Assembly: GCA_001595785.1 (NCBI GenBank)
Contig: LSSJ01000002.1
Coordinates: 22,224 to 86,223 of the forward strand
DNA length: 64,000 nucleotides
Source: Euryarchaeota archaeon SM23-78
GTDB lineage: Archaea; Nanobdellota; Nanobdellia; Woesearchaeales; SM23-78
Reading direction: 5' to 3'
Below are positions 17,910 through 51,042 of this stretch, piece after piece. A program made the translations under genes and the position numbers. The notes below the pieces were generated by a model that worked only from the letters and a program-made list of their open reading frames with translations, made no database searches and was not told the DNA's origin. Position 1 is the first letter of the stretch. Each line of letters begins with the position of its first letter.

Positions 17910-17993
17910 AATAATGATTTTATAGCAAGGTTTTTATAGTTTAAATACCCTTCTCTTTTGGAAGGGGTGGGAATACAGGGAAAGGATGCAACA

Positions 17994-32344: not shown

Positions 32345-35300
32345 ATGAACACTAACAAATTATTAGCAATAACCTTATTTATTCTCTTCTTACCAATCAA
32401 GATGATTCTATCTTTAACTAATCATTTCTCTCATGTTCTTTCATTTAAAGGCTACGCCTTGCCTAGCTCAGCGTGGAAAAAACAAAGGAAAGGCGTAGCC
32501 TCTTTATTTATTTTAATCATACTTCTCTTATTAGTCACTATATCTAGTGCGCTGCCTCAAGTAAGCACTGATAAGAATGAATATGTACTTGGAGAAAAGG
32601 TAATGATTAGTATTAACAATGCCACAAATGATTCTGTAATGAAAATAATAGTTAATGAGAATATTTACAGATACATGGGTGAATTGAATCATGAAACAGA
32701 GTTCAGACCCTCAACAACAGGAGAGCATGTTATTAGTCTGGAATATGATACTAATAAGGAAGTAAAAACTAGTTTTGTAGTAAATCCAAGAGCAGATTCT
32801 TCTAGTATAACAACCATTAGAAAAGTGTATGGACCAAGTAGGATAACACAAGGAATTCAAGGAATAGAAGAGCAGATGCCAGTAATAATTGGTCTTCAAG
32901 AGGCAGAAGGAATAACTATAAGCAAGGATTGGCTCATAATAAGGAATCATGAACAAGAAATTGTTGAGAAAGATCTAGATTTGTATGATCTTAATTCAGG
33001 CAAAAAATATAGTGCTATTAAAAATGCAACTCATAACCCTGTTGGAACATATGATACTGAAATAAAGCTGGATAACTATCCAATTAAAAAAATATTCTTT
33101 AGAAATCTTGAAGCAAAAGGAATTTCAAATGTAGAACTAAGAATAGATGATCTTACATATAATGATGAGAAAGCAGGAACTACTAGCAGCCAATTCTATG
33201 TTATAGACCCAACAAGCCTTAACTTCACAGAGGCTTATGTAACTGTCACTGCAAAAGGAGATGTGCTAAGGAAGTGTAAGAATTGGAACTATACTGCTCA
33301 GAAATGCTATGGAACATGGGAGTATGTTATGGACATAATCCCAGGCCAAAACTACACCTTCCTGCTAACGCCAGAAGACCCTGCTTATAATGAGACAACG
33401 CACGATGCAGATGACTGCTATGATGAGTCAGTACCTGGAGCCTGTACTGGAGCTCAGGTAACAGCAATAAGCTCAAATGGAGGGACAACATATCAGTTTG
33501 ATAAGAATGCAGGAAGCCCTGTAAGAATAAGCTTTGAGAATGAGTCATCAACAATAGGCACAATAGTTGATTGCACTGTTTATGTTGATGGTTATGATAG
33601 TGAGGGCAATACATGGACCTTGCAATTAGGTAACTGGTCAACAAGCATCTGGGATAGTGCAGGAAGCGGACAAACAGCTCCAAGCCCAGAAGGAACTATT
33701 AGCTGGGGTTGCACCTCTCATTTTGGCACCAGTAATGATGATGCTTTATTTGATGATTTCGCTGTGAGAATAAGTACAGATGACAGGTCAAGACCAGCCA
33801 TAGCATATGTTGACCATGTTTATGTTGTTATAAACTTTTCAATACCAGACACGCAAGCACCTTATTATTCTAACATAGTTGCTGGTCCAGAAAGCCCAGC
33901 AACCTTTAGCCCTAGTGCAACCTATCAGTTCAACACAACATGGCAGGACAATGAAGGAGTAAACACCACTTGGATAGAGCACAACTTCACAGGAACCATG
34001 CAAAACTACACCTTTAGCACACATACAGGAGATGTATATTATTATAACTATGGAAACATAGGAGCAGGAAGCTATGTATGGAAAATGCATGCCAATGACA
34101 CAGCAGGAAACCAGAACAGCACTATGCCATGGCAAACATACACAATACAAAAAGCCAATAGCCAAGTAAACCTCTTACTTAATGGGACATCAGCTAATTT
34201 CACTATTAATAACTCTGGCAGTGCTAATATCACTGGTATATTGATAGCAGGAGAAGGAGACCTGACTATTTATGAGGAAGGAAGCCAGATTGCCAATGGA
34301 CCAAGCCCATTATCAACCATAAGAACCTACAGCTCACCGGGAAACTACAACATAACCTTGGTTTACATTGCTACACAAAATTATTCTACAAGCACAGAGA
34401 CTCATTTTGTAAGAGTACAAGATACCATACCCCCTGGAAATGTTACCAACCTTAATGAGACTGAAAAAGGCCAAACCTGGATTCTGTGGAACTGGACAGA
34501 GCCAGGAGACTCTGATTTGGACCATTATGAAATATGGGTGAACGGGTCACATGTAGACAATACCTCAAACGAATATTACAATGTTACTAGTCTACTGGCA
34601 GACACAACCTATGAGATACAGGTAAGGGCTGTGGATAACTGGACAACCCCTAACGTAGGAGACTTTGTTAATGATACTGCAACAACAGAGCCAAGTGCAG
34701 ATGTTACGCCACCAATAATAAGCAATGTGCTTAATAACAGCATAACAGACAGCTCTGTGAACATAACCTGGGATACTGATGAGGTATCAGACAGTGTGGT
34801 AAAGTATGGAACTTCGTCAGGAAGCTATACAGATACTGCTATAAACACATCCCAACTCACAAAGCACATAATTCATCTCACAGGATTAAAACCCAGCACA
34901 ATGTATTACTATGTTGTTAACAGCACAGACCCTGCAGGCAACACCAACCAGAGTAAAGAATATAACTTTACCACAGAAGCAGATGGAACACCACCTCATT
35001 ATTCTAGTATTATTGCCAGTCCATCAAGCCCAGCAACGTACAGCCCAGGCGCAACCTACCAGTTTAATACTACCTGGCAAGATAGTGGTTGGATAGACAA
35101 GGTATGGATTGAGCACAACTTCACAGGAACCATGCAAAATTATACATATGTACCTAATACAAGTAGTGTTTATTATTATAACTATGGAAACATAGCAGCA
35201 GGGAACTATGTTTGGAGAATGCACGCAAATGACAGTGCTGGGAATCAGAACAGCACTATGCCATGGCAGAACTACAAAGTTAATAAGTCAGCCAGCCAAG

Positions 35301-37537
35301 TGAATTTGCTTTTAAACCAAACAGGTGATAATATTAGTATTAATGAGAGTCAGAGTGTGAACATTACAGGAATCCTTGTGACTGGTCAAGGAAACATAAT
35401 CCTTTATCAAGATGCAGTTCAAATTAATTATGGACCAAGCCCATTAACAAACATAACAACTTATAACATCCCAGGCACATACAATATCACCTTGACATAC
35501 TATGCAACCCAGAACTACACTAAAAGCAAAGAAACACACTTCATAATTGTGAATGACACAAGAGCACCATGGATAAATCTCATAGACCCTAAGAATGGAA
35601 GCACAGACAGTGATGGAGATGTAATATTCAAGTTCAATGTAAATGATACAAGTGATGTTACAAACTGTTCTCTATATCTGAACGGAGAGCGCAATAAAAC
35701 AAAGGAAATCTTAACCAAAGGCCAGAATACCTTTACAGTTAATAATCTTAACAACGGTAACTACACCTGGTATGTTAATTGCAGTGACCCTGTAAACCAT
35801 ACAAACATAAGTGTAAAATGGAATTTAACAGTAGAGATAAATGAATTTTTCCCTTACATCTGGCCAGAAACCTGTTCTGACAGCGATGGGTGCACTGTGA
35901 ACAATATAAACAATACGCCAAATCAATGGGAAGAGCACGGAACTCTTTCTAAAAGTCCAAGATACAACTATGTGTACATAAACTTCACTCCCTCAAATAT
36001 ACCAGCAGGAAGCACCATACACTGGATGTATATCTTTTATGACAAATACCAAGAAACAACAAGCGGATGGTTCAGATTGGAATGGAGGAACGGAACAGAC
36101 CAGAACATAACTATATGTACTAATAGTTATGGAAGTGATGTTTATCATGCCCATGACTCTGTTAATTGCACCTTTTCAAATGAGACTATGCCAACAGTAA
36201 ATCGGTTAAATAGTGGGCTTGAACTAATAGTTACTTTTTATTATGGAGGTACTGCGTCAGGAAAACAATATGGAACAGATGAAACATACATAAACTTAAA
36301 GTATACTGAAGATGTTACTCCACCTACAGTAGAACTAGTATATCCAAATGCTTATCACAGACCAGGTCAGGTTAATTTCACCTATATCCCTAATGATAAA
36401 AACTTGGTTAATTGTACTCTTTACGGAGATTTCACTGGGAGCTGGGGTGAGAATCTCTCAGATACAACTGTAGTGTCAGGGCAAAAAGAAAACTTCACCA
36501 TAAACCTGGATGAAGGATACTACACCTGGAACGTCTACTGCTGTGACATAGCTGAGAACTGTGCATTTGATGAGATAGGAGGACCTAAAAATGATGGAAA
36601 CTACACAGTAAATATTACTAATCCAGACCTAATCGTAAATCAGATTACATTTAACACGTCAGATTATCTAACCAAAGAAGGAATGAACATAACTATTAAT
36701 GCAACCATAAAAAACCAAGGAAATGTAAATGTAACAGAAACCTTTAAGATACAATGGTGGATTGGAGACCCTGATAGTGGAGGAACCCAGATTAATGGTA
36801 ATGAAACCATCACCGGGCTCCTGGTTAATGAGGAAAAAACAGTGAGCATGAGCTGGATTATAGACAGAGGAGGACCCAGAAATATATATGTAATAGTGGA
36901 TCCGCCCTTAGCAACCAATGGAAGTGTAAAAGAAACAAAAGAGGATAATAATAAGAATAACAAGACATTGCATGTACCAGCATACAATTATTTCTATGGC
37001 CAGGCAGAAAACAACATCTACCTTGCCAATGCTGATAATGAGTCATTATACAACTACCTTAACATAGCCAATGTAACAGGAAACATATTTGTAGCAGATG
37101 AAGACAGTACAATAAGCTTTTCCTTACTCCAAGCAATAAGCAGAGATATAAATAATAATAGTGTAAGCAATGACTTTAATGACACAGACACAGCCCTTAG
37201 CATGACCGATTATAATGATTCAATAAGAAAAATATATACTGATAATACAGACATACCCATAGAAACCATGACCTTCACAGTATACACCAAAGACATAAAT
37301 GATGTGCCAGTAATTGACAGCACCAACACCAGCAACTTCAAGACAGGCATGCTCTGGGATAAGAGTGATGAAGGAACACAGTACAACGGAAGTCAGGACT
37401 TAATATTCATAACAGAAATCAATCAAGAACAAGAAGGAAAATACGGTACCTATGACTATGAAATAAGAGTGCCTGTTAACCTAAAGGATTACTTAGTAGC
37501 AGGAACCAATGTAGGCTTTTACTATGAGATAATATGA
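32345..37537 (+). CDS. Giant sequon-rich surface protein with conserved N-module, FN3 domains, HYR/Ig-like repeats, CARDB-like domain and conserved C-terminal domain
   Basis: KCKNWNYTAQKCYGTWEYVMDIIPGQNYTFLLTPEDP N-module. FN3 (WILWNWTEPGDSDLDHYEIWVNG...YEIQVRAVD). CARDB-like (…VIVDPPLATNGSVKETKEDNNKNN). C-terminus YDYEIRVP...VGFYYEII. True start may be the in-frame TTG near 32457, just before the KKQRK plus hydrophobic signal peptide. Confidence 0.8.
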   Translation: MNTNKLLAITLFILFLPIKMILSLTNHFSHVLSFKGYALPSSAWKKQRKGVASLFILIILLLLVTISSALPQVSTDKNEYVLGEKVMISINNATNDSVMKIIVNENIYRYMGELNHETEFRPSTTGEHVISLEYDTNKEVKTSFVVNPRADSSSITTIRKVYGPSRITQGIQGIEEQMPVIIGLQEAEGITISKDWLIIRNHEQEIVEKDLDLYDLNSGKKYSAIKNATHNPVGTYDTEIKLDNYPIKKIFFRNLEAKGISNVELRIDDLTYNDEKAGTTSSQFYVIDPTSLNFTEAYVTVTAKGDVLRKCKNWNYTAQKCYGTWEYVMDIIPGQNYTFLLTPEDPAYNETTHDADDCYDESVPGACTGAQVTAISSNGGTTYQFDKNAGSPVRISFENESSTIGTIVDCTVYVDGYDSEGNTWTLQLGNWSTSIWDSAGSGQTAPSPEGTISWGCTSHFGTSNDDALFDDFAVRISTDDRSRPAIAYVDHVYVVINFSIPDTQAPYYSNIVAGPESPATFSPSATYQFNTTWQDNEGVNTTWIEHNFTGTMQNYTFSTHTGDVYYYNYGNIGAGSYVWKMHANDTAGNQNSTMPWQTYTIQKANSQVNLLLNGTSANFTINNSGSANITGILIAGEGDLTIYEEGSQIANGPSPLSTIRTYSSPGNYNITLVYIATQNYSTSTETHFVRVQDTIPPGNVTNLNETEKGQTWILWNWTEPGDSDLDHYEIWVNGSHVDNTSNEYYNVTSLLADTTYEIQVRAVDNWTTPNVGDFVNDTATTEPSADVTPPIISNVLNNSITDSSVNITWDTDEVSDSVVKYGTSSGSYTDTAINTSQLTKHIIHLTGLKPSTMYYYVVNSTDPAGNTNQSKEYNFTTEADGTPPHYSSIIASPSSPATYSPGATYQFNTTWQDSGWIDKVWIEHNFTGTMQNYTYVPNTSSVYYYNYGNIAAGNYVWRMHANDSAGNQNSTMPWQNYKVNKSASQVNLLLNQTGDNISINESQSVNITGILVTGQGNIILYQDAVQINYGPSPLTNITTYNIPGTYNITLTYYATQNYTKSKETHFIIVNDTRAPWINLIDPKNGSTDSDGDVIFKFNVNDTSDVTNCSLYLNGERNKTKEILTKGQNTFTVNNLNNGNYTWYVNCSDPVNHTNISVKWNLTVEINEFFPYIWPETCSDSDGCTVNNINNTPNQWEEHGTLSKSPRYNYVYINFTPSNIPAGSTIHWMYIFYDKYQETTSGWFRLEWRNGTDQNITICTNSYGSDVYHAHDSVNCTFSNETMPTVNRLNSGLELIVTFYYGGTASGKQYGTDETYINLKYTEDVTPPTVELVYPNAYHRPGQVNFTYIPNDKNLVNCTLYGDFTGSWGENLSDTTVVSGQKENFTINLDEGYYTWNVYCCDIAENCAFDEIGGPKNDGNYTVNITNPDLIVNQITFNTSDYLTKEGMNITINATIKNQGNVNVTETFKIQWWIGDPDSGGTQINGNETITGLLVNEEKTVSMSWIIDRGGPRNIYVIVDPPLATNGSVKETKEDNNKNNKTLHVPAYNYFYGQAENNIYLANADNESLYNYLNIANVTGNIFVADEDSTISFSLLQAISRDINNNSVSNDFNDTDTALSMTDYNDSIRKIYTDNTDIPIETMTFTVYTKDINDVPVIDSTNTSNFKTGMLWDKSDEGTQYNGSQDLIFITEINQEQEGKYGTYDYEIRVPVNLKDYLVAGTNVGFYYEII

Positions 37538-37892: not shown

Positions 37893-38822
37893 GTGCAAGC
37901 ACCTAAAGAACTGCCAGAGATAACTGCACAAACGCAGCCTCCTATGCTTCCAAAAGAAGAGAAATCAATGCAACTAGAACAACCCCAGCCAAAACCATTT
38001 CAAGCATCAACCCAGGAACAACCAAAAAAAGAGTTTAAATTACCCAAAATAGAGCGCTCACCTGTTCAGGAAAGAAGTCACTCACCTCTGCACGAGGACA
38101 CAAGTGTTCAGGAAGATGATATGAAAGAATTTGAAGAAGCCATAAATAAAATAAATATAGACATGGTACACAGTGAAACACCAGAAACCTATAGCTCAAG
38201 TAAGGAAGAAGAAACTGAATATTATAAACCAGCAGAACTAGGAGAAGGCTATTTCTCAGAAATAGAGCATTACATAAAAAATAAGGATGTGAATGAGATA
38301 ATAGATGATGTAATGAAAAAAGACTTCTTAACTAGTATGAAAGACTATCATGGTGCAAGAGCCCAAGGAAAACCATTCTACCTGCACCAACAAGACCTTA
38401 AATACAAGTTAGAAAAAAAGATGGAGCAACTTAGAAGCTTGGAAGAAGAATGGCACAGCCTAAAGGCACAAATAGAAGAGAAGGAGAAGAAAAGAATAGA
38501 AATAGAGCAAAGAATAGAGCAGGAAAGCCAGGAACTAAAAGAATTATTCAGACAAATCAAGGTAAACCAGATATTAGAGCAACAATCACCCAAAGAACAC
38601 TACTTTAAGCTTAGAAATGGGCAAGAACTTAAAAACCTAAATGACCTGAGAAAAGTCCTTGAATACATGAGTGATGAGGATTTCAACCACCATGTAAACC
38701 AGGAGAAGAATGATTTTGCTATATGGATTAGAGAAGCCCTGCAAAACAAAGCGTTATATGAGAAGATAAAGGATACGAAGACAAGAGAAGAACTGCAAGA
38801 AATACTAAAGAACCCTCTATAA
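37893..38822 (+). CDS. Acidic coiled-coil protein whose C-terminal ~75 aa are homologous to the N-terminal extension of the KaiC-like ATPase
   Basis: GTG start. C-terminus NLNDLRKVLEYMSDEDFNHHVNQEKNDFAIWIREALQNKALYEKIKDTKTREELQEIL versus KaiC-like N-terminus NLWELRDFLSKTSDEIFTRYVNEEKNDFESWIRHSLKNQELADLVRKKKTREETVQII. Confidence 0.5.
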   Translation: MQAPKELPEITAQTQPPMLPKEEKSMQLEQPQPKPFQASTQEQPKKEFKLPKIERSPVQERSHSPLHEDTSVQEDDMKEFEEAINKINIDMVHSETPETYSSSKEEETEYYKPAELGEGYFSEIEHYIKNKDVNEIIDDVMKKDFLTSMKDYHGARAQGKPFYLHQQDLKYKLEKKMEQLRSLEEEWHSLKAQIEEKEKKRIEIEQRIEQESQELKELFRQIKVNQILEQQSPKEHYFKLRNGQELKNLNDLRKVLEYMSDEDFNHHVNQEKNDFAIWIREALQNKALYEKIKDTKTREELQEILKNPL

Positions 38823-38852: not shown

Positions 38853-39623
38853 TTAAGATATGTCTGCATAGAAGTAATAAGTGGTTCCTGGGGTACCAAA
38901 GCTAATACTCCTGTTCTCAGCAACAATTATCTGAAAGTCATAAGTGTTATCCAAAGACGCATTATTATTAAAACCCCAAGCATCCTGTTCTATAAAAGTT
39001 GCAAATATAAAGTTACCATCAGTACGGTCATAGAGTGTGAGCTCTTGGAAATAAGCATTTGAATCAACTGTCTGAGCAGTATCATTCACATAAGTAGCTG
39101 TGCTCTGGCAACTGTTAGCAGCAATATTTGAAGGACCACTCATATCCATTGCGCTGTGAAGGCTGGCATTAAAAGTGTTATTAATACTATAAGGGTCACT
39201 ACTACTCATTCCAAAGAAGTTCTGCTCACTTATTATATTAGTATCATTAGCACACTCAACATTAGTCCAGTCCACACTATCATTCCTACTTACAAAAACA
39301 AAACCTGACATAGAAGTACTGTTCATACCCCACTCATAAATACTCCAGCCATCACTATTCCTTAAAACAAGCATACCAGTAATGTTTCCAACATAACCCT
39401 TCCAAGAAGGTTCTTGCTGAGTAACTGCAAGATTTATAGTAATAATATAGCCTCCAGGATCACTTCTGGATTCAATAACAGAAGTATAGGTAGAATTACT
39501 GATATAATTAACCTCAGCCCCAACAGGATCTGCACTAGTAAAATGAATTATAATAAATGTAAGATACAGAACCAATCCTAGTATTAGAAAAACCAGTTTT
39601 AGCTCCTGCTTGATCTTCCTCAC
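38853..39623 (-). CDS. Small secreted sequon-rich protein, family member A (C-terminal YYFYADIS)
   Basis: GTG start with GAGGTGA upstream. Sec signal peptide with FTSA|DP site. SWKGYVGNITG...IYEW and YDFQIIVAEN...TTYYFYADIS family blocks. Confidence 0.7.
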   Translation of the reverse strand: MRKIKQELKLVFLILGLVLYLTFIIIHFTSADPVGAEVNYISNSTYTSVIESRSDPGGYIITINLAVTQQEPSWKGYVGNITGMLVLRNSDGWSIYEWGMNSTSMSGFVFVSRNDSVDWTNVECANDTNIISEQNFFGMSSSDPYSINNTFNASLHSAMDMSGPSNIAANSCQSTATYVNDTAQTVDSNAYFQELTLYDRTDGNFIFATFIEQDAWGFNNNASLDNTYDFQIIVAENRSISFGTPGTTYYFYADIS

Positions 39624-39695
39624 TTAGTCACCTCGTTGCAAGCAAAAAAATATAAGTAACAGGGCAATAACCCTGTTCCTTACTATAGTTGCGGT

Positions 39696-40478
39696 TTATT
39701 CTATCTCTGCCCAAAAGTAGTAAGTGGTTGTTGTGTCTTCAAAACCGTCCTGCCCGTTCTCTGCTACTAGGAGCTGGAAGTCGTGAGTTACTCCGTCAAA
39801 GCCCACAATGTCTGTGCTGTTATCAGCTACATTGTTCTCAATAATTGTAGTGAAAATAAGAACAGCTGTGTCTGTTAACAACACATTCTCAAAGTTCTCA
39901 TTTACTGGAGCTCCGTTCTGATAAGCATTTGTAGCAGGGCAGGTATTTGTTGTTATGTTATGTGTACCAACCTTAAAGAAAAGGTTCATGTTATCAGTAA
40001 AGGTCTCATTAATACCATCTGAATCATCATCTTGAATCCCAAACCAGCCTTCTGCTGTATCAACAGTAAATCCATTGCTTCCATCAAACTCAAAGCAGGC
40101 AATAGCACTCCAGTTAATAGTGTTATTTATGCAAGCATAAATCTCTCCTTTTGGCTCCATAGTAGACCAGTTGTAAAACACATTGCCACTTGAATCCTCC
40201 AAGGTCAGAGTACCTGTAATCTCTCCATAGTAACCCTGCCAAGCCTTGGTCGTAGAAATGGCTGTTAGGTTGAGCTCTGTTATGTTACCTGCTTCTGCTT
40301 CTGTTTGAGAAGGTGGGTAAGAAGACAGGTCTGGTCTTGATGATGCACCAGGCGCTATGTTTGTCACGCCAAAGGGCTCATCAGAATCTGCCCATACAAA
40401 TACTGCCATTAGACTAAAGACGGCTAGAAAGCCGAATATAAGTAGAGTTGTACTTATTTCCTTTTTCATATTTATCAC
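39696..40478 (-). CDS. Small secreted sequon-rich protein, family member B (C-terminal YYFWAEIE)
   Basis: Signal peptide VWA|DSDEP. AWQGYYGEITG...FYNW and HDFQLLVAENG...TTYYFWAEIE. CTTGCAACGGTGA immediately upstream of the ATG. Confidence 0.7.
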   Translation of the reverse strand: MINMKKEISTTLLIFGFLAVFSLMAVFVWADSDEPFGVTNIAPGASSRPDLSSYPPSQTEAEAGNITELNLTAISTTKAWQGYYGEITGTLTLEDSSGNVFYNWSTMEPKGEIYACINNTINWSAIACFEFDGSNGFTVDTAEGWFGIQDDDSDGINETFTDNMNLFFKVGTHNITTNTCPATNAYQNGAPVNENFENVLLTDTAVLIFTTIIENNVADNSTDIVGFDGVTHDFQLLVAENGQDGFEDTTTTYYFWAEIE

Positions 40479-40561
40479 CGTTGCAAGTTTTTAAGTTATG
40501 TTTAAATGCAAGCTTATCTAGGGTGACATACCCTAAATTAATATACACATAGGTATACCCA

Positions 40562-40576
40562 TATATAAATGTTTCG
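40562..40576 (-). promoter_or_regulatory. Conserved BRE/TATA-like promoter motif (minus-sense AAATCGAAACATTTATATA) for gene 39696-40478
   Basis: 15-mer tatataaatgtttcg is identical at 48097-48111 and 52078-52092. On the minus strand it reads CGAAACA (BRE-like) plus TTTATATA. Confidence 0.5.
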
Positions 40577-40608
40577 ATTTTTAATGGTTTTTAAAGAAAA
40601 AAACACTA

Positions 40609-41595
40609 TTATGGACTCTCAGCAGCAAAAACCACAGTACCATTACAAATACCAAAAGGATTAGTAGTAAGATTAACATGAAGCCTCCAATAAGTAGCAT
40701 TAATCACATAGCCACCAGAACCAGAAACAGTCTGTTTATCAACAGTAAGACCTTCTATAGTATCAGGAGCTACGGCTAGACGAGTCATCGCAGCATATCC
40801 TGTGGCTGAGCTCAAATCCCATCTTTCGTTGTGTATAGTAATGTTTCTTACTGCACAAATCATTGCCATTCCAGCACCTGCCACAGAATCATTACTCCCA
40901 AAACCCCATACACTTACATTAATAGGAACATTACCAAAGTTTGTAACATTTGCTGAGGGTGGAGGGGTAGCAATATAAGTGTCAGTAACAGCCATATTAC
41001 CAAAATCAATAACATTAGTAACATTTAAGGCTAGAAGAGCATTAATAGAGGAATTACGAACGTCAGTATCCTTAGCACCATACGTGTCATTAACAGTAGC
41101 ATTCATCTGCCAAGTACCATTATTAGCATGATAATAAACATCAAAAACACATGTCCAGTTAGTAAAATAACCACTTGAACTTGTATTTGTGCAACTACTA
41201 TTACTGTAATGCGTATTATTATCATCAGGGTCTGCTGAGGAATTCAGGTAATAAAAGAAAGTTCCATTCACATAATTAATATCTCCTCCTCCATTATAAT
41301 CGCGAATTTCAACTAAACAACTTACTGTTTGGGTAGTACCTGCATTCAAAGTAACAGGATTCTCACTATTACACGTTATGTTAAGAATCTCAGGAAAAGA
41401 ATTAGTAATATTAACTGTTGTACGCACACTTACATTCTCATAATTACCACTAGGACCCCAGCTAGTCACAGGAAGGCCTTTGAAAGCTAAGAATCCAATA
41501 AATAATAGAAACAGCACTAAGAGAATCTTTTTAACTGGATTAATACTTAGATAATCCAAAATTTCTCTTTTTAACCATGCTCTGTCTTTATTCAT
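40609..41595 (-). CDS. Secreted sequon-rich protein, second family (paralog of 51045-51977)
   Basis: Mature N-terminus WGPSGNYENVSVRTTVN and C-terminus VNLTTNPFGICNGTVVFAAESP closely match the paralog. N-terminal signal anchor. Confidence 0.7.
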   Translation of the reverse strand: MNKDRAWLKREILDYLSINPVKKILLVLFLLFIGFLAFKGLPVTSWGPSGNYENVSVRTTVNITNSFPEILNITCNSENPVTLNAGTTQTVSCLVEIRDYNGGGDINYVNGTFFYYLNSSADPDDNNTHYSNSSCTNTSSSGYFTNWTCVFDVYYHANNGTWQMNATVNDTYGAKDTDVRNSSINALLALNVTNVIDFGNMAVTDTYIATPPPSANVTNFGNVPINVSVWGFGSNDSVAGAGMAMICAVRNITIHNERWDLSSATGYAAMTRLAVAPDTIEGLTVDKQTVSGSGGYVINATYWRLHVNLTTNPFGICNGTVVFAAESP

Positions 41596-41622
41596 TTAAG
41601 TATATACCTATTCATTAATTGT

Positions 41623-42384
41623 TTAAGGTCCTAGTTCAATATAAAAGTAATAAGTTGTTCCACTTGAACTCTCATTCTCAGCAACTATGGCTTGGAAGTC
41701 ATAAGTAGCATTATTAACCTCAAAACCCCATGAGTTGTCATTTATTAAAGATGTATAAATAAAATTAGTACCATCATGTAAGGCTACTTCCTGGAAATCA
41801 GCAGTAGGACTAGGATCTTGCTTAGTATTATTCACCCAAGTAGCTAAAGCCCGACAAGCACCCTGAGCAAAAGGCGTGCCTGCTGTACTAAAAGCTTTGT
41901 GAGCGTTTACTGAAGTATTAAAGGTGTTGTTAATATTATAAGGAACATTATTAGGTAATCCTAAGGCGCCTTATTCTGTGAGCATACGAGCATTTGTAGC
42001 ACAACTTACATTTGAAAAGTTTATGGCATTGCTCCTGGTAATGTATACCTCTCCTTCAACAGTTCCTCCTGAAGGCCATTCGTAAATACTATAATTATAT
42101 CCATTCTGCAACACATACTTTCCTGTGACATTTCCAACATAGGCCTTCCAAGCATCAGTTTGTTGTTCAAGATCTAGATTTATAGTCACAATAACTCCTC
42201 CATCATCTGTCCTGCTATCAGCGGTTCTATTAGGTCCATTATCAACATCAGGGGTTCCTGATATTGTTGCTCCTTGAGGATCAGCATAGGCAAGGTATAA
42301 TGATAAACCACAAAGGATTAGGGTTAACACTAGGTAAATCATTAGGATTCTGGTTGTTCTTGTGTATGGTTTTTTATTTGTCAC
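41623..42384 (-). pseudogene. Family member C of the small secreted proteins, interrupted by an in-frame TAA at 41971-41973
   Basis: Track ORFs 41971-42384 and 41623-41835 are in the same frame. Reading through the TAA gives continuous family homology (...NARMLTE*GALGLPNNVPYNINNTFNTSVNAH...ATWVNNTKQ...YDFQAIVAENESSSGTTYYFYIELGP). The stop aligns with Gln in paralog A (SEQ versus TE*). Confidence 0.6.
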
Positions 42385-42450
42385 TATCCTCGCCTTTCCT
42401 CAAATTAAACTTTCATTGACTTGTTTTATCTGCCTCTATAAACTCGTTAT

Positions 42451-43767
42451 TTAGCTTAGCTCAATGTAAAAGTACACAGTAGTTGTTCCTGCAGCGTCTG
42501 ATTCTCCAACTAGGAGCTGGAAGTCATGTGTTGATCCGTCAAATCCTGTTTCAGTGTCATTAATCAGGGTGGTATAAACAGCATCTCCTTCTGCGTCTGT
42601 TAGTAGTACCTGATAAAATGCATCTGCTGATGGACTACCACCGGCATCATAGGTGTTTGTAGCATTACAACCAGTAATACCTGATACACTTCCAACATTG
42701 AAGGTTGGGTGCGTGGTACTGGTGTAAGTATTGTTTATTCTGTCTGAGTCATCTGGGTCTATTCCTAGAGTACCCTCAATAGCAAGTGCTTCAGCTTCAC
42801 TAGCACATCCAATTCCACTCCAACTCACAGTGCCATCAGCAGAGGCAAATACTTCGCCTGCAATTGAGCCTCCTAGACCAGTCCAATCATAGAACACATC
42901 ACCATTACTATTCTCTAAGGTGAGGTTCCCTGATATCTCACCATAGAAACCAGCCCAGTGCTCTGTTATTTTTGTTCCAGAGATGTTTATCTCTGTTACA
43001 TTTCCAGCCTGGACTGCAATGCTATCAGGCGAGCCACCACTAAGATTGGCTCTGCTTGAAGCAACCAAATCTACTCCTGCTCCTTGTACTCCAAAAACCA
43101 GTGTTATCCCTGTATAGAGTAATCCCAAAACTATCATTAACAAAACTGCTTTTTTAACATGGTTTGTATACCTCATTTTAAGTGCATAGAACTCAGAGGA
43201 TTTTTTGTTAAGAACTTTGCTTAACTCATATTTTGTTTTTATATCAAAGAATACTGTTTTTGAAATCCCTTCGGGGTTTTTTATTAAAACTTTTTTTAGT
43301 TGTGTTTTCAGATTTTGATCATCTGAAACCATCACTAAATTTATGTTATCAGAATTTGTAAGGTCAAGCAACATAGCATCTATCTTGTTTATATGTTCTT
43401 CTGCATGCCAGAAAGCCTTTTCAAGGTAGTAGTGAAGCTCTGGCTTATCAAGGAACCATATTTTCAGGATTATCTTATTGTAATCACTTAATTTGTGAAA
43501 CTTTTTATCTACAAAGTCTTGGGTGCTTGCTATTAAGAAAGAATGATTTCCAGCCAGAGAGTAGAGCAGCCTTGGCTGCCCCTTATCCCTGTTGGAAATC
43601 CTTTTGCTTTGAACAAGACCGGCCATCTCTAGAAGACGTAGTTGCTGACTTATGTTTGCAACTGAGGTGTTGGACAGTTTTGCCAGCTGGAGTGGAGACT
43701 TGCTTCCTGAGGAGAGTATCTTCAGGATGTCCCATTTAGAGGCCGTAAAAAGGGTTTCTTGTTCCAT
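42451..43767 (-). CDS. Membrane-anchored one-component regulator: cytoplasmic ArsR/TrmB-like wHTH, single TM, extracytoplasmic domain of the small-secreted-protein family
   Basis: N-terminus LQLAKLSNTSVANISQQLRLLEMAGLVQSKRISNRDKGQPRLLYSL (wHTH). TM VLLMIVLGLLYTGITLVFGV at ~residue 205. Ectodomain HWAGFYGEISG...FYDW, HDFQLLVGES...TTVYFYIELS. Confidence 0.7.
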   Translation of the reverse strand: MEQETLFTASKWDILKILSSGSKSPLQLAKLSNTSVANISQQLRLLEMAGLVQSKRISNRDKGQPRLLYSLAGNHSFLIASTQDFVDKKFHKLSDYNKIILKIWFLDKPELHYYLEKAFWHAEEHINKIDAMLLDLTNSDNINLVMVSDDQNLKTQLKKVLIKNPEGISKTVFFDIKTKYELSKVLNKKSSEFYALKMRYTNHVKKAVLLMIVLGLLYTGITLVFGVQGAGVDLVASSRANLSGGSPDSIAVQAGNVTEINISGTKITEHWAGFYGEISGNLTLENSNGDVFYDWTGLGGSIAGEVFASADGTVSWSGIGCASEAEALAIEGTLGIDPDDSDRINNTYTSTTHPTFNVGSVSGITGCNATNTYDAGGSPSADAFYQVLLTDAEGDAVYTTLINDTETGFDGSTHDFQLLVGESDAAGTTTVYFYIELS

Positions 43768-44060
43768 TTTGTTTTTTTATGCTTGCAACGGTGTTGATTA
43801 TAAAACCAATTCCCGCCGTTTTTAGACGACAGGAATTGTTTAATGGCTTCCAGTAGCGTTTCACTATTTTTTATTATCTTGGTATACTTTTTGGTATAAT
43901 AAAATCCTAATAGCACAACTCATATTTAAATATTTCGGTTTTTAGTTAACTACTGTACCTAAACAAATTATGAATTAAGAAAATAAAGAAAATACACTAA
44001 TTTATTAAAAAGTGAATTAGAGGGTTAGAAGGCTTAAAAATGCAGAATTTGAAAATTGAG

Positions 44061-44224
44061 TTTAAAAAGGCCTACTCCGATTTGCTCACAAAATGTTCGC
44101 AAAGCTCCGCCGTGCCATGCAAAACAGCAAAAATAAAATTTTTGAGCATACAAAGCAAAAAACTTTGTATACAGCAAAAAAGCTGTTGTTGCATATGATG
44201 GCTGCGACGGCCTTTTTAAACTCA
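44061..44224. repeat. MITE-like structured repeat, copy 4
   Basis: 15-bp terminal inverted repeats gagtttaaaaaggcc / ggcctttttaaactc. Contains the reverse complement of module gcg.agctttgcgaa....gagtaggcc shared with copies 1 and 3. Confidence 0.55.
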
Positions 44225-44244
44225 AAAAAGTTAATAAAAAAACC

Positions 44245-45018
44245 TCAGCCCAGCTCAGCCCAGAAATAATAAGTTATTGAAGTGTCTCCAGGATCATCTG
44301 GGACTATGAACTGGAAATCATAAGTGCCAACATCAAAGCCTGGCTCATTGTTCTCTAGGAGTGTTGTAAACACTAGATTTAATCCATCAGATAAAAGTAT
44401 CTCTTGAAACGTAGCGCTTTCATCAGCTGGCTGAGCACTATCATTAACATAGGTTGCTATGGCATAGCAAGAGCTATTACTAATTGTGCCAGTTCCTCCT
44501 ATTACAAATGATTTATGTACTTGCTGGTCAAAGGTATTGCTTATGCTATCATCAGTGCTAGAGTTTATATTCAAAGTTGTTTCTTCTGCTGAGATGTTGC
44601 CATCATTTGCACATGCTAGTGAGCTAAAGCTGACCGAGTCATTCCTTGAAACATATACTTCTCCTTGGACTATTGTTATTGCCCAGTCATATATAGTATA
44701 ATTATATGAGTTGTCCAAAGTTATTTTTCCTGTGACATTTCCAACATAAGCCTTCCATTTACTAGTCTGAGAGGTTACATTCAGCACTAGGGTTGTGAAG
44801 GAACCTCCTGCTGCTGTATGAGAATCTACTGGTCTAACACTAGCATTTTCAGTTTGATTAAGGGTTATTTTTGCTCCTTGTGGCACAGCAAACACAGGGA
44901 TTTGATTACCAAAGAGTGCAAGAGCTAGTATAGTGAGGAGTAGGAAGATTATGCTTGTCTTCCTTGCTACACTAATTATATTCTTATTTTTTAGATTCAT
45001 CTTTTTTATTTTTCTCAA
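44245..45018 (-). CDS. Small secreted sequon-rich protein, family member E (C-terminal YYFWAELG)
   Basis: KWKAYVGNVTG...IYDW, ATYVNDSAQ (as in member A), YDFQFIVPDD...ITYYFWAELG. Signal peptide with VFA|VPQGA site. Confidence 0.7.
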   Translation of the reverse strand: MRKIKKMNLKNKNIISVARKTSIIFLLLTILALALFGNQIPVFAVPQGAKITLNQTENASVRPVDSHTAAGGSFTTLVLNVTSQTSKWKAYVGNVTGKITLDNSYNYTIYDWAITIVQGEVYVSRNDSVSFSSLACANDGNISAEETTLNINSSTDDSISNTFDQQVHKSFVIGGTGTISNSSCYAIATYVNDSAQPADESATFQEILLSDGLNLVFTTLLENNEPGFDVGTYDFQFIVPDDPGDTSITYYFWAELG

Positions 45019-45526
45019 ACTTTTTTTTAGCTCTTGAATGGACAGTCCATACTGTTCTTTGGTCTTTGTTTAGTATGCGTGCAATTTCAGAATACTTCAT
45101 CTCAAGATTCTTGAGATAGTGAACAAGGGCTTCTAGGATGCTGAGTCTTCTGTCTCTAAAGATGCTTAGAGGAACCTGAATATCTACTTGGATGTCTGTT
45201 TCTTCAAACACAAAGGCTTTTTTCTTCTGAACAGACCTATATGTAACCCATATTGTTTTAGGGTCTCGGTTTAGAAGCAAGGCTATCTGCTTATTAGTCT
45301 TGTGCAGGTTTTCTTTAAGGTATTTTACAATGATTTGTAGAGGAGTAAGCCTGTTTTTGAAAAGAGTGACTGGAAGATATATCTCATCCTCGTATTTTAG
45401 GTTTAGATAGAAAACAGAGGGTGTCTCACTGATTGAATCTTCTGTTTTGAATTGATTTGAAATCCTTTGCTCAGAGATACTATACTCTAGATTAGTGCTG
45501 TTAATGAAAAAATCTGGCTTTTCCAT
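44984..45526 (-). CDS. Cytoplasmic protein with two tandem sigma-70-region-4/LuxR-like HTH repeats
   Basis: Internal duplication RLTPLQIIVKYLKENLHKTNKQIALLLNRDPKTIWVTYRSVQKKK / RLSILEALVHYLKNLEMKYSEIARILNKDQRTVWTVHSRAKKK. Overlaps the start of member E by 17-35 nt. Confidence 0.5.
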   Translation of the reverse strand: MEKPDFFINSTNLEYSISEQRISNQFKTEDSISETPSVFYLNLKYEDEIYLPVTLFKNRLTPLQIIVKYLKENLHKTNKQIALLLNRDPKTIWVTYRSVQKKKAFVFEETDIQVDIQVPLSIFRDRRLSILEALVHYLKNLEMKYSEIARILNKDQRTVWTVHSRAKKKFEKNKKDESKK

Positions 45527-45716: not shown

Positions 45717-47516
45717 ATGGGTATGATAAAACCAATTAATTTTTCAAAAAACATAGTGCTGTATCTCTTAACATTAATACTAATCCTCTTAATGCCAATT
45801 TGTGTGATGGCTCAAGACCATATTATAGCTAACTCAGCAGACTGGAGGGATGTTTACTCAACAACCCTGTATGCAAATTTACTTGGAATACCAAACAACT
45901 TCTTAACAAGCACACCTCATGGTCCAATAGTGCTTTATGAAATACCTAAAAGCAGGCAAAATATACAGATAATAACCTCTGCTGACAGGCCCTATGTTGT
46001 AGGATATGAATCACTAATCAGAGGCAGAGGATATGAAAATCCTGAAGAGCTAATATTTAACCAAGCAAACCTAGAACTAGCTAGAAGACTACCTGATGTC
46101 AACAAGTACATAATCATTGATGATTCCTATGGATATAATGCTATAGCAGTGGCTCCTTATGCTGCAAAAGCCAATTATTATGTGTTATTTGCAGATGACA
46201 GGAATATTGGAGAAGTAGATGATTTCTTATCCACCAAGAACGTTGCAGATATAATAATATATGGTCATGTAGATAGAGAAGTAAGAAGCACTCTAGCCAA
46301 ATATGATTCTGAGATTATAAACAGTGAAACTGGAAGCAGGTTTGAGAACAATGCAATGATGGTTGATAAGTATAATGAGATAGGTAGCATAAAACAAGTA
46401 ATCCTGACAAATGGTGAGTTCATAGAAGCCAGTATGTTAAGTGGAAACGAACCAGTCTTGTTCATAGGAACCAACAATGTTCCTGATGAGATACAGGATT
46501 ATATACAAGATAGAGATATAGAAATAGGTGTTCTTATAGGGAATGAGTTAATAGGCACAGCTACTTTTATAAGAAGACAATTAGGAATAAGCGTGTTTGT
46601 TAAATTTGCAAGAGGATCACGGGTTCCAGGGGGTACCATAAACCCTGTAGAAGATTTAGACAGATTTCCAATGCCCAGCTATACCTTAAGCATGAGTATT
46701 ATATCAATAGTATATAACCAGGCTACTGGGCTTCTTGAAGTAACATACAGTAACAACGTAGATCTTGCTACTTATTTCAAGTCAACCATCACGATAAGGG
46801 ATGATGCTGGTGAAACCCTTGCAGTGGTTGGTGATGAAAACCCTGTTTTTATTGATGGAGGTGAGACCAAGACTATTGTTTATGAAGTTGATTTATCAGA
46901 AGCTGAGAACACAGACAACTTAACTGGAGAAATATACACTATTTATGGTGAGTCAAAAACATCCCTAGAAAAAGCTCTGAGAGGGACTTTTAAAATAGAG
47001 ATAATAACTGTTATGGATGATGCTGATATAGAAATAGTAGATTTAGTTTATGACAAGGGCAGGGGAAGATTCCTAGTGACAATTGAGAACACAGGTCCTG
47101 TTGATGTCTATGTTGATGTTGAAATAGAAGACTTATGGTTCGATGGAGAATACATCACTGTAAGTGCAGATGAGATTGAAAAGATAGATGTTGGCAAGAA
47201 AAAAACCATTCCTATAAATATAAAACTAGAAGAAGAGGATTTAGAAGATAGAAGAAATTCTGAGGTAACTGTAAGAGGCATTTACGGAGAAAGAAAACAT
47301 GCCCTTGTAAAAAGCAAAGCCCGTACCTTTGAACTCAAATTAAGAAAAGGACTGCTCTGGTGGTACATACCCCTTATAGTTGGATTTGTTATAATTATTA
47401 TCATATTAATCTTATTATTATTAGGAAAAAGAAGAAAAAAGAGATGTAAAAGGTGTAGAACTCTTAATAAGAGTGATGCTACTCATTGTAAGAAGTGTGG
47501 TCATAAATTACATTAG
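45717..47516 (+). CDS. Membrane protein: signal peptide, large ectodomain, C-terminal TM and cytoplasmic zinc ribbon
   Basis: N-terminus LYLLTLILILLMPICVMAQ. TM LLWWYIPLIVGFVIIIIILILLLL followed by RRKKRCKRCRTLNKSDATHCKKCGHKL (CxxC...CxxC). Confidence 0.6.
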   Translation: MGMIKPINFSKNIVLYLLTLILILLMPICVMAQDHIIANSADWRDVYSTTLYANLLGIPNNFLTSTPHGPIVLYEIPKSRQNIQIITSADRPYVVGYESLIRGRGYENPEELIFNQANLELARRLPDVNKYIIIDDSYGYNAIAVAPYAAKANYYVLFADDRNIGEVDDFLSTKNVADIIIYGHVDREVRSTLAKYDSEIINSETGSRFENNAMMVDKYNEIGSIKQVILTNGEFIEASMLSGNEPVLFIGTNNVPDEIQDYIQDRDIEIGVLIGNELIGTATFIRRQLGISVFVKFARGSRVPGGTINPVEDLDRFPMPSYTLSMSIISIVYNQATGLLEVTYSNNVDLATYFKSTITIRDDAGETLAVVGDENPVFIDGGETKTIVYEVDLSEAENTDNLTGEIYTIYGESKTSLEKALRGTFKIEIITVMDDADIEIVDLVYDKGRGRFLVTIENTGPVDVYVDVEIEDLWFDGEYITVSADEIEKIDVGKKKTIPINIKLEEEDLEDRRNSEVTVRGIYGERKHALVKSKARTFELKLRKGLLWWYIPLIVGFVIIIIILILLLLGKRRKKRCKRCRTLNKSDATHCKKCGHKLH

Positions 47517-48383: not shown

Positions 48384-49061
48384 ATGACAGAAAAAAACAG
48401 AAAAACAGAGGAAATCCTGATCTTAATAACGGTCCTCCTGCTTTTAACCCTAAGTATGTTAGTGTTTAACAAGGTTGTTCCTGAATCTTTTCAAAGCATA
48501 ACTGGCAAAGTGATAAGTAGGGTTAATATTACTCAATCAATACAAACAAATTGTAGCTTCACCCTTAATCAAGGACTTAATCTAGTGTCTTTTTTCTGTA
48601 TTTCTACCATGACATCAACAACAGACGTAGTTGGATCTCTTTCAAATTTAGAAGCAGTTTTTGAATACCAAGAAGGGAGTAGTGATCCATGGAAGATTTA
48701 CAATCCTAATCTACCAAGCTTTGTTATTTTAGACCTGAACTATATAAGTAGAAAAGAAGGTTATTGGGTGAAAATGCTGGCTAATGAAAACTTCCTTTTA
48801 GCAGGCGGTCTCAGGGTTCCAACTTATATAGACCTGGTTCTTGGGTGGAACCTAGCTGGTTATCCTACAAATGAAACCAAGGCAGCTAACCAGTCTTTTT
48901 GGTCAATTGATGGTAATTTCACAGAAGTAAGAACATACAATTCATCAAGTGGAAGTTTTATCAGCTATGTTCCTGGGGTTGGTGGAGCTCTTAATCAGAC
49001 AGAAGCCTATTATGGTTATTGGATTAATGCAACAGTTGGCGAGGTGTGGGTTGTTGATTAG
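48384..49061 (+). CDS. Secreted or membrane-anchored sequon-rich protein
   Basis: N-terminal signal anchor ILILITVLLLLTLSMLVF. Internal G.NL.S/GWNLAGYP repeats. N-x-S/T sequons. Confidence 0.55.
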   Translation: MTEKNRKTEEILILITVLLLLTLSMLVFNKVVPESFQSITGKVISRVNITQSIQTNCSFTLNQGLNLVSFFCISTMTSTTDVVGSLSNLEAVFEYQEGSSDPWKIYNPNLPSFVILDLNYISRKEGYWVKMLANENFLLAGGLRVPTYIDLVLGWNLAGYPTNETKAANQSFWSIDGNFTEVRTYNSSSGSFISYVPGVGGALNQTEAYYGYWINATVGEVWVVD

Positions 49062-51042
49062 CAATTATCAAAAATCAAATTTTTATATAATTTTAATTTT
49101 TATATTTATTTTAATATTAAATATAATTTTTGCATCCACTTTAGTTCTAAGTCTGCCTCCCTTACCAACAGAATTTTATGGAAAAGTAAGAGATTATAAT
49201 TATAATGGTTCTGTGGGTGAAGTTATTCGAGCTTATGATAGCTCTGGACTTCTGTGTGGCTCTTTTACAATTGTGAATGAAGGTTATTATGGTTCCCTTA
49301 CATGCAGAGGTGATGATCCTGAAACTGTTGCTGATGAAGGCGCTACTGCAGGTGAAAACATTATTTTCAGATACAAAGGTAGTTTTACAACTTTAAGAGG
49401 TAATAATACCTGGGGGTATGGTGTTTTTCAATATGTAAATATTACCTATCCTGTTGTTTACTGCGGTGATTACTTCTGTGATGCATGGTATGAGGACTAT
49501 TATAGTTGCCCTCAGGATTGCCCTTTTTATAATGGTAGTATAAATTATACTTTTAATTATACTAATGTAACCCCTGGCGGTGGGGCTGGTGAAGGAGGAG
49601 CAGGAGGAAGACAAGAAGGTGGAGGGCTTCTTGGTTTTATTCCTCAGTTCTATTTTAATTATACAGGATTAAATGAAACCGAGATTGGTTTGGGATTTAT
49701 ATGTAAAGAGGAGTGGGAGTGTGGTAACTGGTCTATATGTAGAATTGATGGTTTTCAAAACAGAACATGTATAGATAAGAATAACTGCGGTACTTTTGAG
49801 GACAAACCTCCTGAGGTCCAGAAGTGTATATACACCCCTACTTGTTTTGATGGTGTTAAGAATGGCTTAGAAGAAGGAATAGATTGTGGAGGTCTATGTG
49901 CCCCTTGTATTACTTGTTTTGACAGCATTCAGAACTGCCATGATGGAGCATGCGAAGAAGGAATTGATTGTGGAGGTCCCTGCCCTCCTTGTCCAACGTG
50001 TTTTGATGGTAAACAGAACTGTCATGACGGTAGTTGTGAGGAAGGAATAGATTGTGGAGGCCCTTGTGAGAGAAAATGTCTTGGAATCCAGATACCGATT
50101 CCAGGTTTTGAGTGTAAAAAGGATTTTAATCCTTTGTCTAATCAGAGTATTTTCTTTTTTATTATTATTCTTATCATAATTTTGATTAACATTTATTATT
50201 CATTAAAAAAGATTAAAGATATTGAAAAGAAGAAGAAACTGAGTGATATTCATAGAGCCAAAGCCATACTGTCTGTTAGGAGAAGAATGTATTTGTTTAT
50301 ATTCATAACCTTGCTAATCTCTTTGATATTATACTTGTATTATTATTTCTTTATAATGTGTGAAGTAGAATACCGTTTTTTATGGCTTCTTTTAATACTA
50401 TTATTTATTAGCCCGTTAATTATTCATGAATTAATTAGATTTCTTGAGTTTACTGAGAAAAAGAGATTAAAAAAGCTCGAGGAAGTATTAAATACTCATT
50501 ATAAACAGATAGAGAATCTTATTAGATTAGAGAACGAAAACTTAATAGAATTAGAAGAAGAACTTGCTGATGAACTGTACAGACTTTTAGAAAAACCAGA
50601 GTATAAAGCCAAAGAGAACTCTGAGGAGATGAAGCTTTTGAAAGATGTTTATAAAGAACTTGTGTTTTTGTATTCTAGGTATAAAGAAAGAGAAAATCCT
50701 ATAGAAAAGGAAAAAATCTTATGCGATGATATCTATAAACTTTTAGAAGATAAAAGATATGCTGAACTTGTTCAAAAGGATATCCGGCTTACACGTATTA
50801 TTTCTAAATTGAAACTTCTTTACAAGCAATACGAGGAAAAGCAAAAATTATATGATGAGATGGGTAAGATTGAGGAGTCAAAAGATGAGTTAGAACATGA
50901 GCTAAAAGAAGATAAAGAAAAAGAAGATTCAGACAAAGAAAAAGAAGATTCAAAAGATAAAGATGATAAGGGAGAGACTGAGGAAGTCGAAGAGGACTCT
51001 AATAAAGATAAAGAAGAGGTTAAAGAAGAGGTTGAGGAATAG
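49027..51042 (+). CDS. Membrane protein with three tandem cysteine-rich repeats (C.DG..N/E...EEGIDCGG.C), TM, and long acidic coiled-coil cytoplasmic tail
   Basis: CFDGVKNGLEEGIDCGGLCAPC / CHDGACEEGIDCGGPCPPCPTC / CHDGSCEEGIDCGGPCERKC. TM FFFIIILIIILINIYY. KE/D-rich C-terminus. Start is uncertain; the track ORF opens at 48949 and overlaps the previous gene by 113 nt. Confidence 0.55.
   Translation: MQQLARCGLLISNYQKSNFYIILIFIFILILNIIFASTLVLSLPPLPTEFYGKVRDYNYNGSVGEVIRAYDSSGLLCGSFTIVNEGYYGSLTCRGDDPETVADEGATAGENIIFRYKGSFTTLRGNNTWGYGVFQYVNITYPVVYCGDYFCDAWYEDYYSCPQDCPFYNGSINYTFNYTNVTPGGGAGEGGAGGRQEGGGLLGFIPQFYFNYTGLNETEIGLGFICKEEWECGNWSICRIDGFQNRTCIDKNNCGTFEDKPPEVQKCIYTPTCFDGVKNGLEEGIDCGGLCAPCITCFDSIQNCHDGACEEGIDCGGPCPPCPTCFDGKQNCHDGSCEEGIDCGGPCERKCLGIQIPIPGFECKKDFNPLSNQSIFFFIIILIIILINIYYSLKKIKDIEKKKKLSDIHRAKAILSVRRRMYLFIFITLLISLILYLYYYFFIMCEVEYRFLWLLLILLFISPLIIHELIRFLEFTEKKRLKKLEEVLNTHYKQIENLIRLENENLIELEEELADELYRLLEKPEYKAKENSEEMKLLKDVYKELVFLYSRYKERENPIEKEKILCDDIYKLLEDKRYAELVQKDIRLTRIISKLKLLYKQYEEKQKLYDEMGKIEESKDELEHELKEDKEKEDSDKEKEDSKDKDDKGETEEVEEDSNKDKEEVKEEVEE

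Follow-up and report, generated by a model that had tools for sequence, protein, structure and literature searches.

Domain content of a five-gene cluster and of two giant proteins

The stretch of DNA analysed here (hereafter the window) comprises 64,000 nucleotides of contig LSSJ01000002.1 from Euryarchaeota archaeon SM23-78, placed in the Woesearchaeales by the GTDB lineage, with a GC content of ~35%. Its subject is a cluster of five paralogous genes, g1 to g5, which encode small proteins with export signals and consist almost entirely of a domain that also forms the C-terminus of two giant proteins of the same window. An initial annotation made from the letters alone had described the five open reading frames (ORFs), all on the minus strand, as carriers of a C-terminal domain recognised by three motif blocks. 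All five lie where it had placed them and, with the giants, are as follows (aa, amino acids).

38853-39623, minus strand: g1, 256 aa; signal peptide, conserved N-terminal extension of ~45 aa, domain core with two conserved Cys
39696-40478, minus strand: g2, 260 aa; g2/g4 subtype with the motif AGN[IV]TE[LI]N... W[QA]G[YF]YGEI
41623-42384, minus strand: g3, interrupted by an in-frame TAA at 41971-41973
42451-43173, minus strand: g4 proper, from the internal Met199 (MRYTNHVKKAV...), in frame with the upstream regulator
44245-45018, minus strand: g5, 257 aa; the paralogue chosen for the structure model
1377-10719, plus strand: giant 1, a single gene of ~3,100 aa present as ORFs 1377-5129 and 5104-10719; family domain at ~10162-10719
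32345-37537, plus strand: giant 2, 1730 aa; signal peptide, fn3/immunoglobulin-like (Ig)/CARDB domains, C-terminal family domain, no transmembrane (TM) anchor
36983-37537, plus strand: giant-type domain copy of giant 2, ~185 aa; no Cys, no N-terminal extension, directly after CARDB

The five small products are 30–44% identical in pairwise comparison over their full mature length, and their alignment contains 26 invariant columns that take in all three of the motif blocks. The domain is not, however, a C-terminal appendage of these proteins, as had been supposed, but nearly the whole of the mature chain. With a hidden Markov model (HMM) built from the five proteins g1 scores E=1.4e-97, and its orthologues in other Woesearchaeota are 50–64% identical. 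The fact that orthologues across species are 50–64% identical while paralogues within one genome reach only 30–45% means that the paralogue classes are ancient and non-redundant, and the five classes stay in fixed order across dozens of species. The proposal that the cluster arose by duplication of stand-alone secreted proteins is sound as far as “stand-alone” and “secreted” are concerned, but what had looked like a local burst of duplication is a set of five ancient classes.

The TAA codon within g3 has as its counterpart a CAA (Gln) codon at the same position (~1117) of a metagenomic contig (L083, 99.3% identical) in which the gene is intact, so that a single C>T nonsense change separates the two. 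A recoded stop is ruled out, since the codon is TAA and the near-identical strain has CAA; judged from these two sequences, the TAA is either a very recent nonsense mutation, with g3 as a fresh pseudogene, or a variant of the assembly or of the population.

When the five-protein HMM was searched unfiltered against all 311 ORFs of the window (of at least 50 aa), it returned only the five genes and the C-terminus of giant 2 (E=4e-7), which in isolation scores E=6e-9 and covers HMM positions 43–215. The C-terminus of 5104-10719 is weak by itself (E=0.0018). The C-termini of the two giants are 49% identical over 222 aa (E=2e-68), and a profile of mixed type places both at E≤1e-59 while drawing in no further window protein outside the family. 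These HMM statistics rule out chance or compositional similarity between the small proteins and the giants and agree with the earlier suggestion that the same domain closes both, except that its extent in the giants, put at ~80 aa, is the whole core of ~185 aa.

The giant type of the domain is without the ~45-aa N-terminal extension and the two near-invariant Cys of the small type, and in it CARDB abuts the core. Cysteines are absent from 19 of 20 giant copies, whereas at least two are present in 263 of 268 small copies. Three Asp are invariant across both. Between species, only the last ~400 aa of the giants (Ig, CARDB and the domain) are conserved and the remainder is variable.

Giant 1, which contains Big_13 and CARDB domains, had been given the coordinates 5104-10719, and these do not hold. 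That ORF has no signal peptide; one is present in the overlapping ORF 1377-5129, which has no C-terminal anchor. A metagenomic protein of 3137 aa (P0181), with the same C-terminal domain, matches ORF 1377-5129 with its residues 35–1220 (63% identity) and ORF 5104-10719 with its residues 1273–3137 (73% identity), the two ORFs being collinear with it and lacking ~50 residues at the junction. Since both match a single protein, giant 1 is one gene, of which 5104-10719 is the 3' part; a frameshift or indel near 5104-5129 has divided it. A third giant ORF (56638-64000, >2,454 aa; MG2, Big_13, Big_7, fn3) continues beyond the end of the window.

No curated family in Pfam-A or NCBIfam matches the domain at its cut-off (g1 and g2 match no family at E≤1), and the 62 aligned members, scanned singly against the same collections, gave isolated sub-threshold matches and no recurring family. 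For CWB2 (PF04122) the cut-off was not reached, with 16.7 bits for g5 against the 24.9 needed, in 1 of the 62 members, and the usual CWB2 arrangement is three tandem repeats. Against the PDB, the family profile gave no sequence match at E≤10. For g5, an AlphaFold2 model computed from the 62 sequences has a mean predicted local distance difference test score (pLDDT) of 86.3 and a predicted template modelling score (pTM) of 0.76, with most of the core above 90. In this model a helix at the N-terminus, which is the signal peptide, is followed by a ~50-residue extension that lacks regular structure and then by ten strands and two short helices. This confident model of a small member resembles no solved structure in its fold. 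The view that the domain lies outside the named families is thus borne out by the Pfam, NCBIfam and PDB sequence searches, and its fold is, going by the model, apparently new. In the literature we found no description of the domain family or of its locus.

A word-indexed search recovered 74 relatives, all unnamed or labelled “hypothetical protein” and all from Woesearchaeota, Nanoarchaeota or “archaeon” assemblies, whereas an exhaustive profile search of 1.84 billion cluster representatives recovered 1,949 clusters (50% identity) at E≤1e-3, and 1,582 at E≤1e-10. Among the GTDB species representatives, 295 stretches were confirmed. A viral origin, or a role as a viral receptor-binding protein, was ruled out by the finding that the IMG/VR viral contigs contain no relative. 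As far as these searches reach, the family is large, previously undescribed and restricted to the Woesearchaeota lineage.

In the best 150 of the 1,949 clusters the domain forms one stretch that runs to the protein C-terminus, in proteins mostly of 230–270 aa and otherwise of 468–6,061 aa, the large carriers having Big_13, Big_7, CARDB, MG2 or DUF2341 upstream of it. We also fetched 82 loci, the flanks of some being only 8–10 kb, and 289 of their 293 family ORFs end 0–6 residues past the domain. The strict C-terminal position noticed in the window is borne out by these ORFs and by the best 150 clusters, and in neither set were tandem copies found. Five mid-sized members (P0120, P0173, P0204, P0208 and P0210; 468–785 aa) have an upstream Pfam match to the Nup98-type S59 autopeptidase (E~1e-6 to 1e-7), and in this S59-like region the “HFS” motif at which Nup98 undergoes autoproteolysis is conserved (VQHFSAYSA); by this likeness they are possible self-cleaving surface precursors.

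The conserved locus and its regulators

The five paralogues sit in a locus of ~25 kb which, to judge from gene content and order, is strongly conserved in the lineage. Its canonical set comprises a domain-ended giant, p309, two family genes, p328, a two-helix-turn-helix (two-HTH) protein that overlaps a family gene with its 3' end, an ArsR-type regulator with a g4-type and a g3/g1-type gene after it, a second p328, and then p599, p225, p697 and p927 or p419. The window holds the same gene set between 32345 and 56594. Complete loci usually have five small family genes, and a giant flanks the small genes in 19 loci, where the flanks reach far enough. Hardly any protein of the locus contains a Pfam domain. 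The members in the window, other than those already listed, are:

37893-38822, plus strand: p309, cytoplasmic coiled-coil protein, conserved beside the giant
40609-41595, minus strand: p328, two Ig-like beta-sandwich domains; secreted or N-terminally anchored; conserved operon member
43174-43767, minus strand: ArsR-type winged-helix regulator, residues 1-198 of a 438-aa ORF; PF01022, E=4e-6
44984-45526, minus strand: two-HTH small protein, sigma-70 region 4 / HTH_23-like; overlaps the beginning of g5 with its end
45717-47516, plus strand: p599, type I membrane protein with ectodomain, C-terminal TM helix and cytoplasmic C4 zinc ribbon
48384-49061, plus strand: p225
48949-51042, plus strand: p697, multi-pass membrane protein
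51045-51977, minus strand: paralogue of p328
52096-54879, minus strand: p927, C-terminal TM helix
55335-56594, plus strand: p419, C-terminal TM helix

The ORF at 42451-43767 (438 aa) is an in-frame fusion of the ArsR-type regulator and g4. In relatives the regulator ends with ...Y[AV]LYDPS... and a tail of ~20–30 aa; its stop codon is followed by a ribosome-binding site resembling GGAGGTG and then by the ATG with which the family gene starts. At the junction in the window (43150-43200) the regulator tail, the stop codon and the ribosome-binding site of g4 are deleted and the reading frame is kept. Regulator and family gene are separate in L001, L003 and L004 and in all 55 related loci that carry the regulator, and since none of these 55 is fused the fusion is lineage-specific. 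The initial annotation had thus read a real feature of the window sequence, but its use of the fusion as evidence for the function of the domain falls away, as does the idea of a conserved transmembrane one-component regulator (winged HTH, TM segment, domain). The fusion product could be a membrane-tethered regulator, or could simply depend on signal-peptidase cleavage, as far as its sequence tells.

The arrangement that is conserved has the HTH gene as a separate unit immediately upstream of particular paralogues. A homologue of the two-HTH protein occurs in 72 of the 82 loci, always abutting or overlapping a family gene, which was of the g5 type in all three loci whose class was checked.

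The two p328 proteins (310–330 aa) have a hydrophobic helix at the N-terminus, six Cys and 6 N-glycosylation sequons per 100 aa, and they close with the conserved sequence ...FGICNGTVVFAAExP; p328 usually stands directly after a pair of family genes. As a candidate chaperone-like protein p328 was rejected, its two Ig-like domains being generic and showing nothing specific. The C-terminus (38595-38822) of p309, a protein that adjoins the giant in at least 19 other loci, and the N-terminus (10927-11140) of a KaiC-like ATPase encoded at 10900-11943 have in common a 71-aa “HVNxEKNDFxxWI” domain (42% identity, E=1e-14) with a weak DUF5752-like Pfam match; for both domain-bearing giants, the next gene carries this “NDFxxWI” domain. 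The region between the giants (10900-31701) is rich in signalling genes, namely three for KaiC-like ATPases, one for a Ser/Thr kinase (17958-20411) and others for a Cache/HAMP histidine kinase, a response regulator, a PAS protein, a periplasmic binding protein and a HEPN/nucleotidyltransferase pair (30495-31701).

Export signals, absent anchors and possible binding partners

All small members have signal peptides of the general secretory (Sec) type with small residues at positions -3 and -1, after which follows a conserved x-P-x-G-[AP] motif. N-glycosylation sequons number 3–4 per 100 aa in the small proteins and 5–9 in the giants, compared with 0–0.3 in cytoplasmic proteins of the window. Because of this high sequon density and the two near-invariant Cys of the small type, the domain-bearing proteins appear to be extracellular. 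They are not type IV pilins or archaellins, since their N-termini are Sec-type (an h-region, then a small-x-small site) rather than class III signal peptides, in which a short charged leader with G/A at -1 precedes a hydrophobic helix that stays in the mature protein, and no type IV pilus machinery (PilB, PilC, prepilin peptidase) was found in the window.

Strict placement at the extreme C-terminus of large surface proteins, together with the conserved last strand of the small-type proteins (T-x-YYF[YW]-x-E-[LI]), recalls the C-terminal domain of type IX secretion substrates, and the family domain might likewise be an export or sorting signal that is read by some archaeal machinery and perhaps removed or modified after transport. 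We regard this as very improbable. All carriers already have Sec signal peptides, the domain (~190–215 aa) amounts to the whole mature small protein and so leaves no cargo, and the conserved neighbours offer no candidate machinery beyond proteins of unknown function. The chains end in ...YYF[YW]xE[LI], and neither a sorting motif with a TM helix (LPXTG, PGF-CTERM) nor a type IX C-terminal domain of ~80 aa is present.

No carrier of the domain in the window has a second hydrophobic segment or a C-terminal TM helix by TM prediction, which agrees with the earlier remark that the copies end without a TM helix or a sortase- or PGF-CTERM-like signal. Five surface proteins of the window without the domain, on the other hand, do end in a TM helix and a cytoplasmic tail (11952-15809, 15833-17188, 45717-47516, 52096-54879 and 55335-56594). 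This difference would be explained if the domain were a docking module that binds not itself but a membrane-anchored receptor (p599, p927 and p419 being candidates) or an envelope polymer, so that the giants would be tethered, and the small proteins would act at the same sites as occupants or regulators or would be decoration subunits. The strict C-terminal position of the domain and the combination of a conserved C-terminus with a variable N-terminal part in the giants speak in its favour, as does the presence of p599 beside the family genes in 40 loci.

The candidate receptor p599 is 52% identical to its counterpart in L004 and 46% to that in L003, is highly conserved overall (43–80% identity), and may form the membrane base of the system or act as its signalling partner. 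Its profile matched nothing in the PDB except the zinc ribbon, and its ectodomain, with only sub-threshold CWB2-like and ArlF/ArlG-like matches, has no recognisable binding fold. Neither L001 nor about half of the 82 stretches contains p599, for which the short flanks (8–10 kb) may account in some cases. A difficulty with docking to a receptor is that it leaves unexplained the five passenger-less paralogue classes in fixed order, and we consider it somewhat unlikely, if worth keeping in mind.

The domain might instead bind a ligand or host as a lectin does, in which case it would be the adhesive tip of the giants, the small proteins would be short or secreted versions of it, and the presumed episymbiont would use both in host recognition. 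Its beta-rich character, the many conserved aromatic and polar residues and the three invariant Asp of both types would suit such a role, archaea of the DPANN group are generally seen as surface-attached symbionts, and the diversity of the paralogues could mirror different ligands. The model has no fold similarity, however, to any lectin or carbohydrate-binding module, and the paralogue classes do not diversify from species to species but are conserved. Among the giants conservation lies in the domain and variability in the remainder, the reverse of what is usual for host-recognition tips, and after cleavage of the signal peptide nothing else would keep the giants on the cell. A lectin-like role thus seems distinctly unlikely to us.

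A possible assembly module at the cell surface

That the small and giant proteins have a domain in common is real and statistically solid; its function can be argued from the company that it keeps. A domain that is unnamed, strictly terminal, present both alone and on giants, and found in carriers without an anchor is most economically given a docking or assembly role. The initial annotation's proposal of a docking or cap module is compatible with these observations, and its arguments from position, from the two forms and from the absent anchors retain their weight, while that from the regulator fusion does not. Of the two roles we lean toward assembly, in which the domain would be a homo- or heterotypic module that unites anchor-less proteins in one cell-surface structure; this is a tentative preference, and we would rate its chances as reasonable but short of even. 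Self-association, polymer formation and strand donation are what we infer here from the homology, domain architectures, export signals, absence of anchors and locus conservation described above. A passenger-less domain makes little sense as a mere anchor, since a pure anchor has no need of five cargo-free paralogues, whereas five classes in fixed order, usually with five small copies and a flanking giant, form the pattern of a multi-subunit structure.

In such an assembly the Woesearchaeota-specific, Sec-exported, N-glycosylated and beta-rich domain would bind further copies of itself outside the cell. The products of g1 to g5 would, after signal-peptidase cleavage, build up a fibre resembling a thread or pilus, or else a sheath, which the giants would enter through their own copy of the domain, stripped of the extension and of the disulfide, as terminal, adhesin-bearing subunits with the variable N-terminal part exposed. 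The N-terminal extension of the small proteins (...GG-x-[FI]-T-T-[LI]-x-L-N-x-T-x-Q...) might insert into a neighbouring subunit, and the giants, being without it, would be strand acceptors only. The two locus-specific HTH regulators would control expression. Within the extension, segment 71–90 (GGSFTTLVLNVTSQT...) is conserved at 2.8 bits per column, equal to the core, yet nowhere in the mature protein is the confidence of the monomer model lower, and no strand is assigned to it; the segment is missing from the giant type. High conservation together with low model confidence is consistent with an intermolecular role of this segment.

Several observations weigh against assembly or against its literal donor-strand form. 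The conserved ~45-aa extension with its beta-prone motif, which the small type has and the giant type lacks, is also kept behind other domains in the mid-sized proteins P0120, P0173, P0204, P0208 and P0210 (g2/g4-type domain), so a free N-terminus is dispensable and the extension may simply belong to the fold. AlphaFold2 also puts the extension on the monomer with moderate confidence (pLDDT 73–80). The locus contains no recognisable chaperone, usher, sortase or assembly ATPase, and the fold of the domain is unlike that of any known pilin. Finally, that the subunits interact at all is itself inferred from sequence.

Precedent for the assembly reading comes from the archaeal threads, whose subunits are processed by Sec and signal peptidase I, are heavily N-glycosylated, match no Pfam domain and have both a donor strand at the N-terminus and a mature N-terminus that is conserved (PMC9715654). 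The thread subunit Saci_0406 of Sulfolobus acidocaldarius (PMC9715654) is, like the small proteins here, a small, beta-rich, Sec- and signal-peptidase-I-processed protein with an N-terminal extension and conserved residues after the cleavage site; it too is heavily N-glycosylated, without a Pfam domain and without a known dedicated assembly machinery, and its gene stands beside a related paralogue proposed as cap (PMC9715654). The two differ in that there is no similarity of sequence or fold, in that a polymer is postulated here, and in that five paralogue classes with giant fusions occur in a DPANN lineage here as opposed to the Crenarchaeota there.

Chaperone-usher pili likewise have several small paralogous subunits encoded together, and their adhesins FimH and PapG possess a C-terminal subunit domain without an N-terminal donor strand, which is the same asymmetry as that between giant and small type. 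These are bacterial Ig-like folds encoded with chaperone and usher genes, however, and none of the latter was found at the locus; the adhesin parts, moreover, are here 1,700–3,100 aa of Ig/CARDB repeats. The chaperone-free donor-strand polymers formed by TasA and the archaeal bundling pili (ABP) and by the Ena fibres of Bacillus are a further parallel, with Sec-secreted subunits of ~200–260 aa that there self-assemble extracellularly and, for TasA, a gene beside HTH regulators (sinR/sinI). Homology to TasA, Ena or threads is ruled out on fold, as the beta-sandwich or jelly-roll folds of the known pilins (chaperone-usher, threads, TasA/ABP, Ena, cannulae) show no relation to that of the model. 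The modules that decide with a conserved end the fate of variable large surface proteins (the type IX C-terminal domain, PGF-CTERM with archaeosortase, SLH/CWB2, cohesin-dockerin) resemble the giants in that respect; by contrast, the family domain has no TM segment or tripartite motif, is much larger than the type IX domain and also stands alone in five conserved paralogues.

In its most specific form, the assembly reading would be a Woesearchaeota-specific, chaperone-free fibre of five subunits of new fold, joined by strand donation and bearing interchangeable, acceptor-only giant Ig/CARDB tips. We think this full version unlikely, yet if true it would be an organelle that holds DPANN cells to their hosts or to surfaces.

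Woesearchaeota are among the most widespread uncultivated archaea and are thought to live attached to other cells, and to our knowledge nothing is known of their surface structures. The present analysis defines an unannotated family of about 1,950 clusters (50% identity) with no fold relative, a conserved locus of ~25 kb almost all of whose proteins are unknown, and a testable architecture of five small subunits and giants with one common terminal domain. Were the assembly hypothesis true, it would provide the first molecular handle on the building of an attachment apparatus in these archaea and a new structural class among the few archaeal filaments that are not of type IV. Even if it fails, the domain would serve as a marker for surface-exposed proteins in Woesearchaeota genomes.

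As to how such genomes are titled, many species-representative metagenome-assembled genomes with a Woesearchaeota-type locus (L008, L012, L016, L025, L030 and others) are recorded as “uncultured Methanosarcinales archaeon”, and the label of one p328 homologue reads “Bacteroidota bacterium”. Such titles have the appearance of mislabelling or mis-binning.

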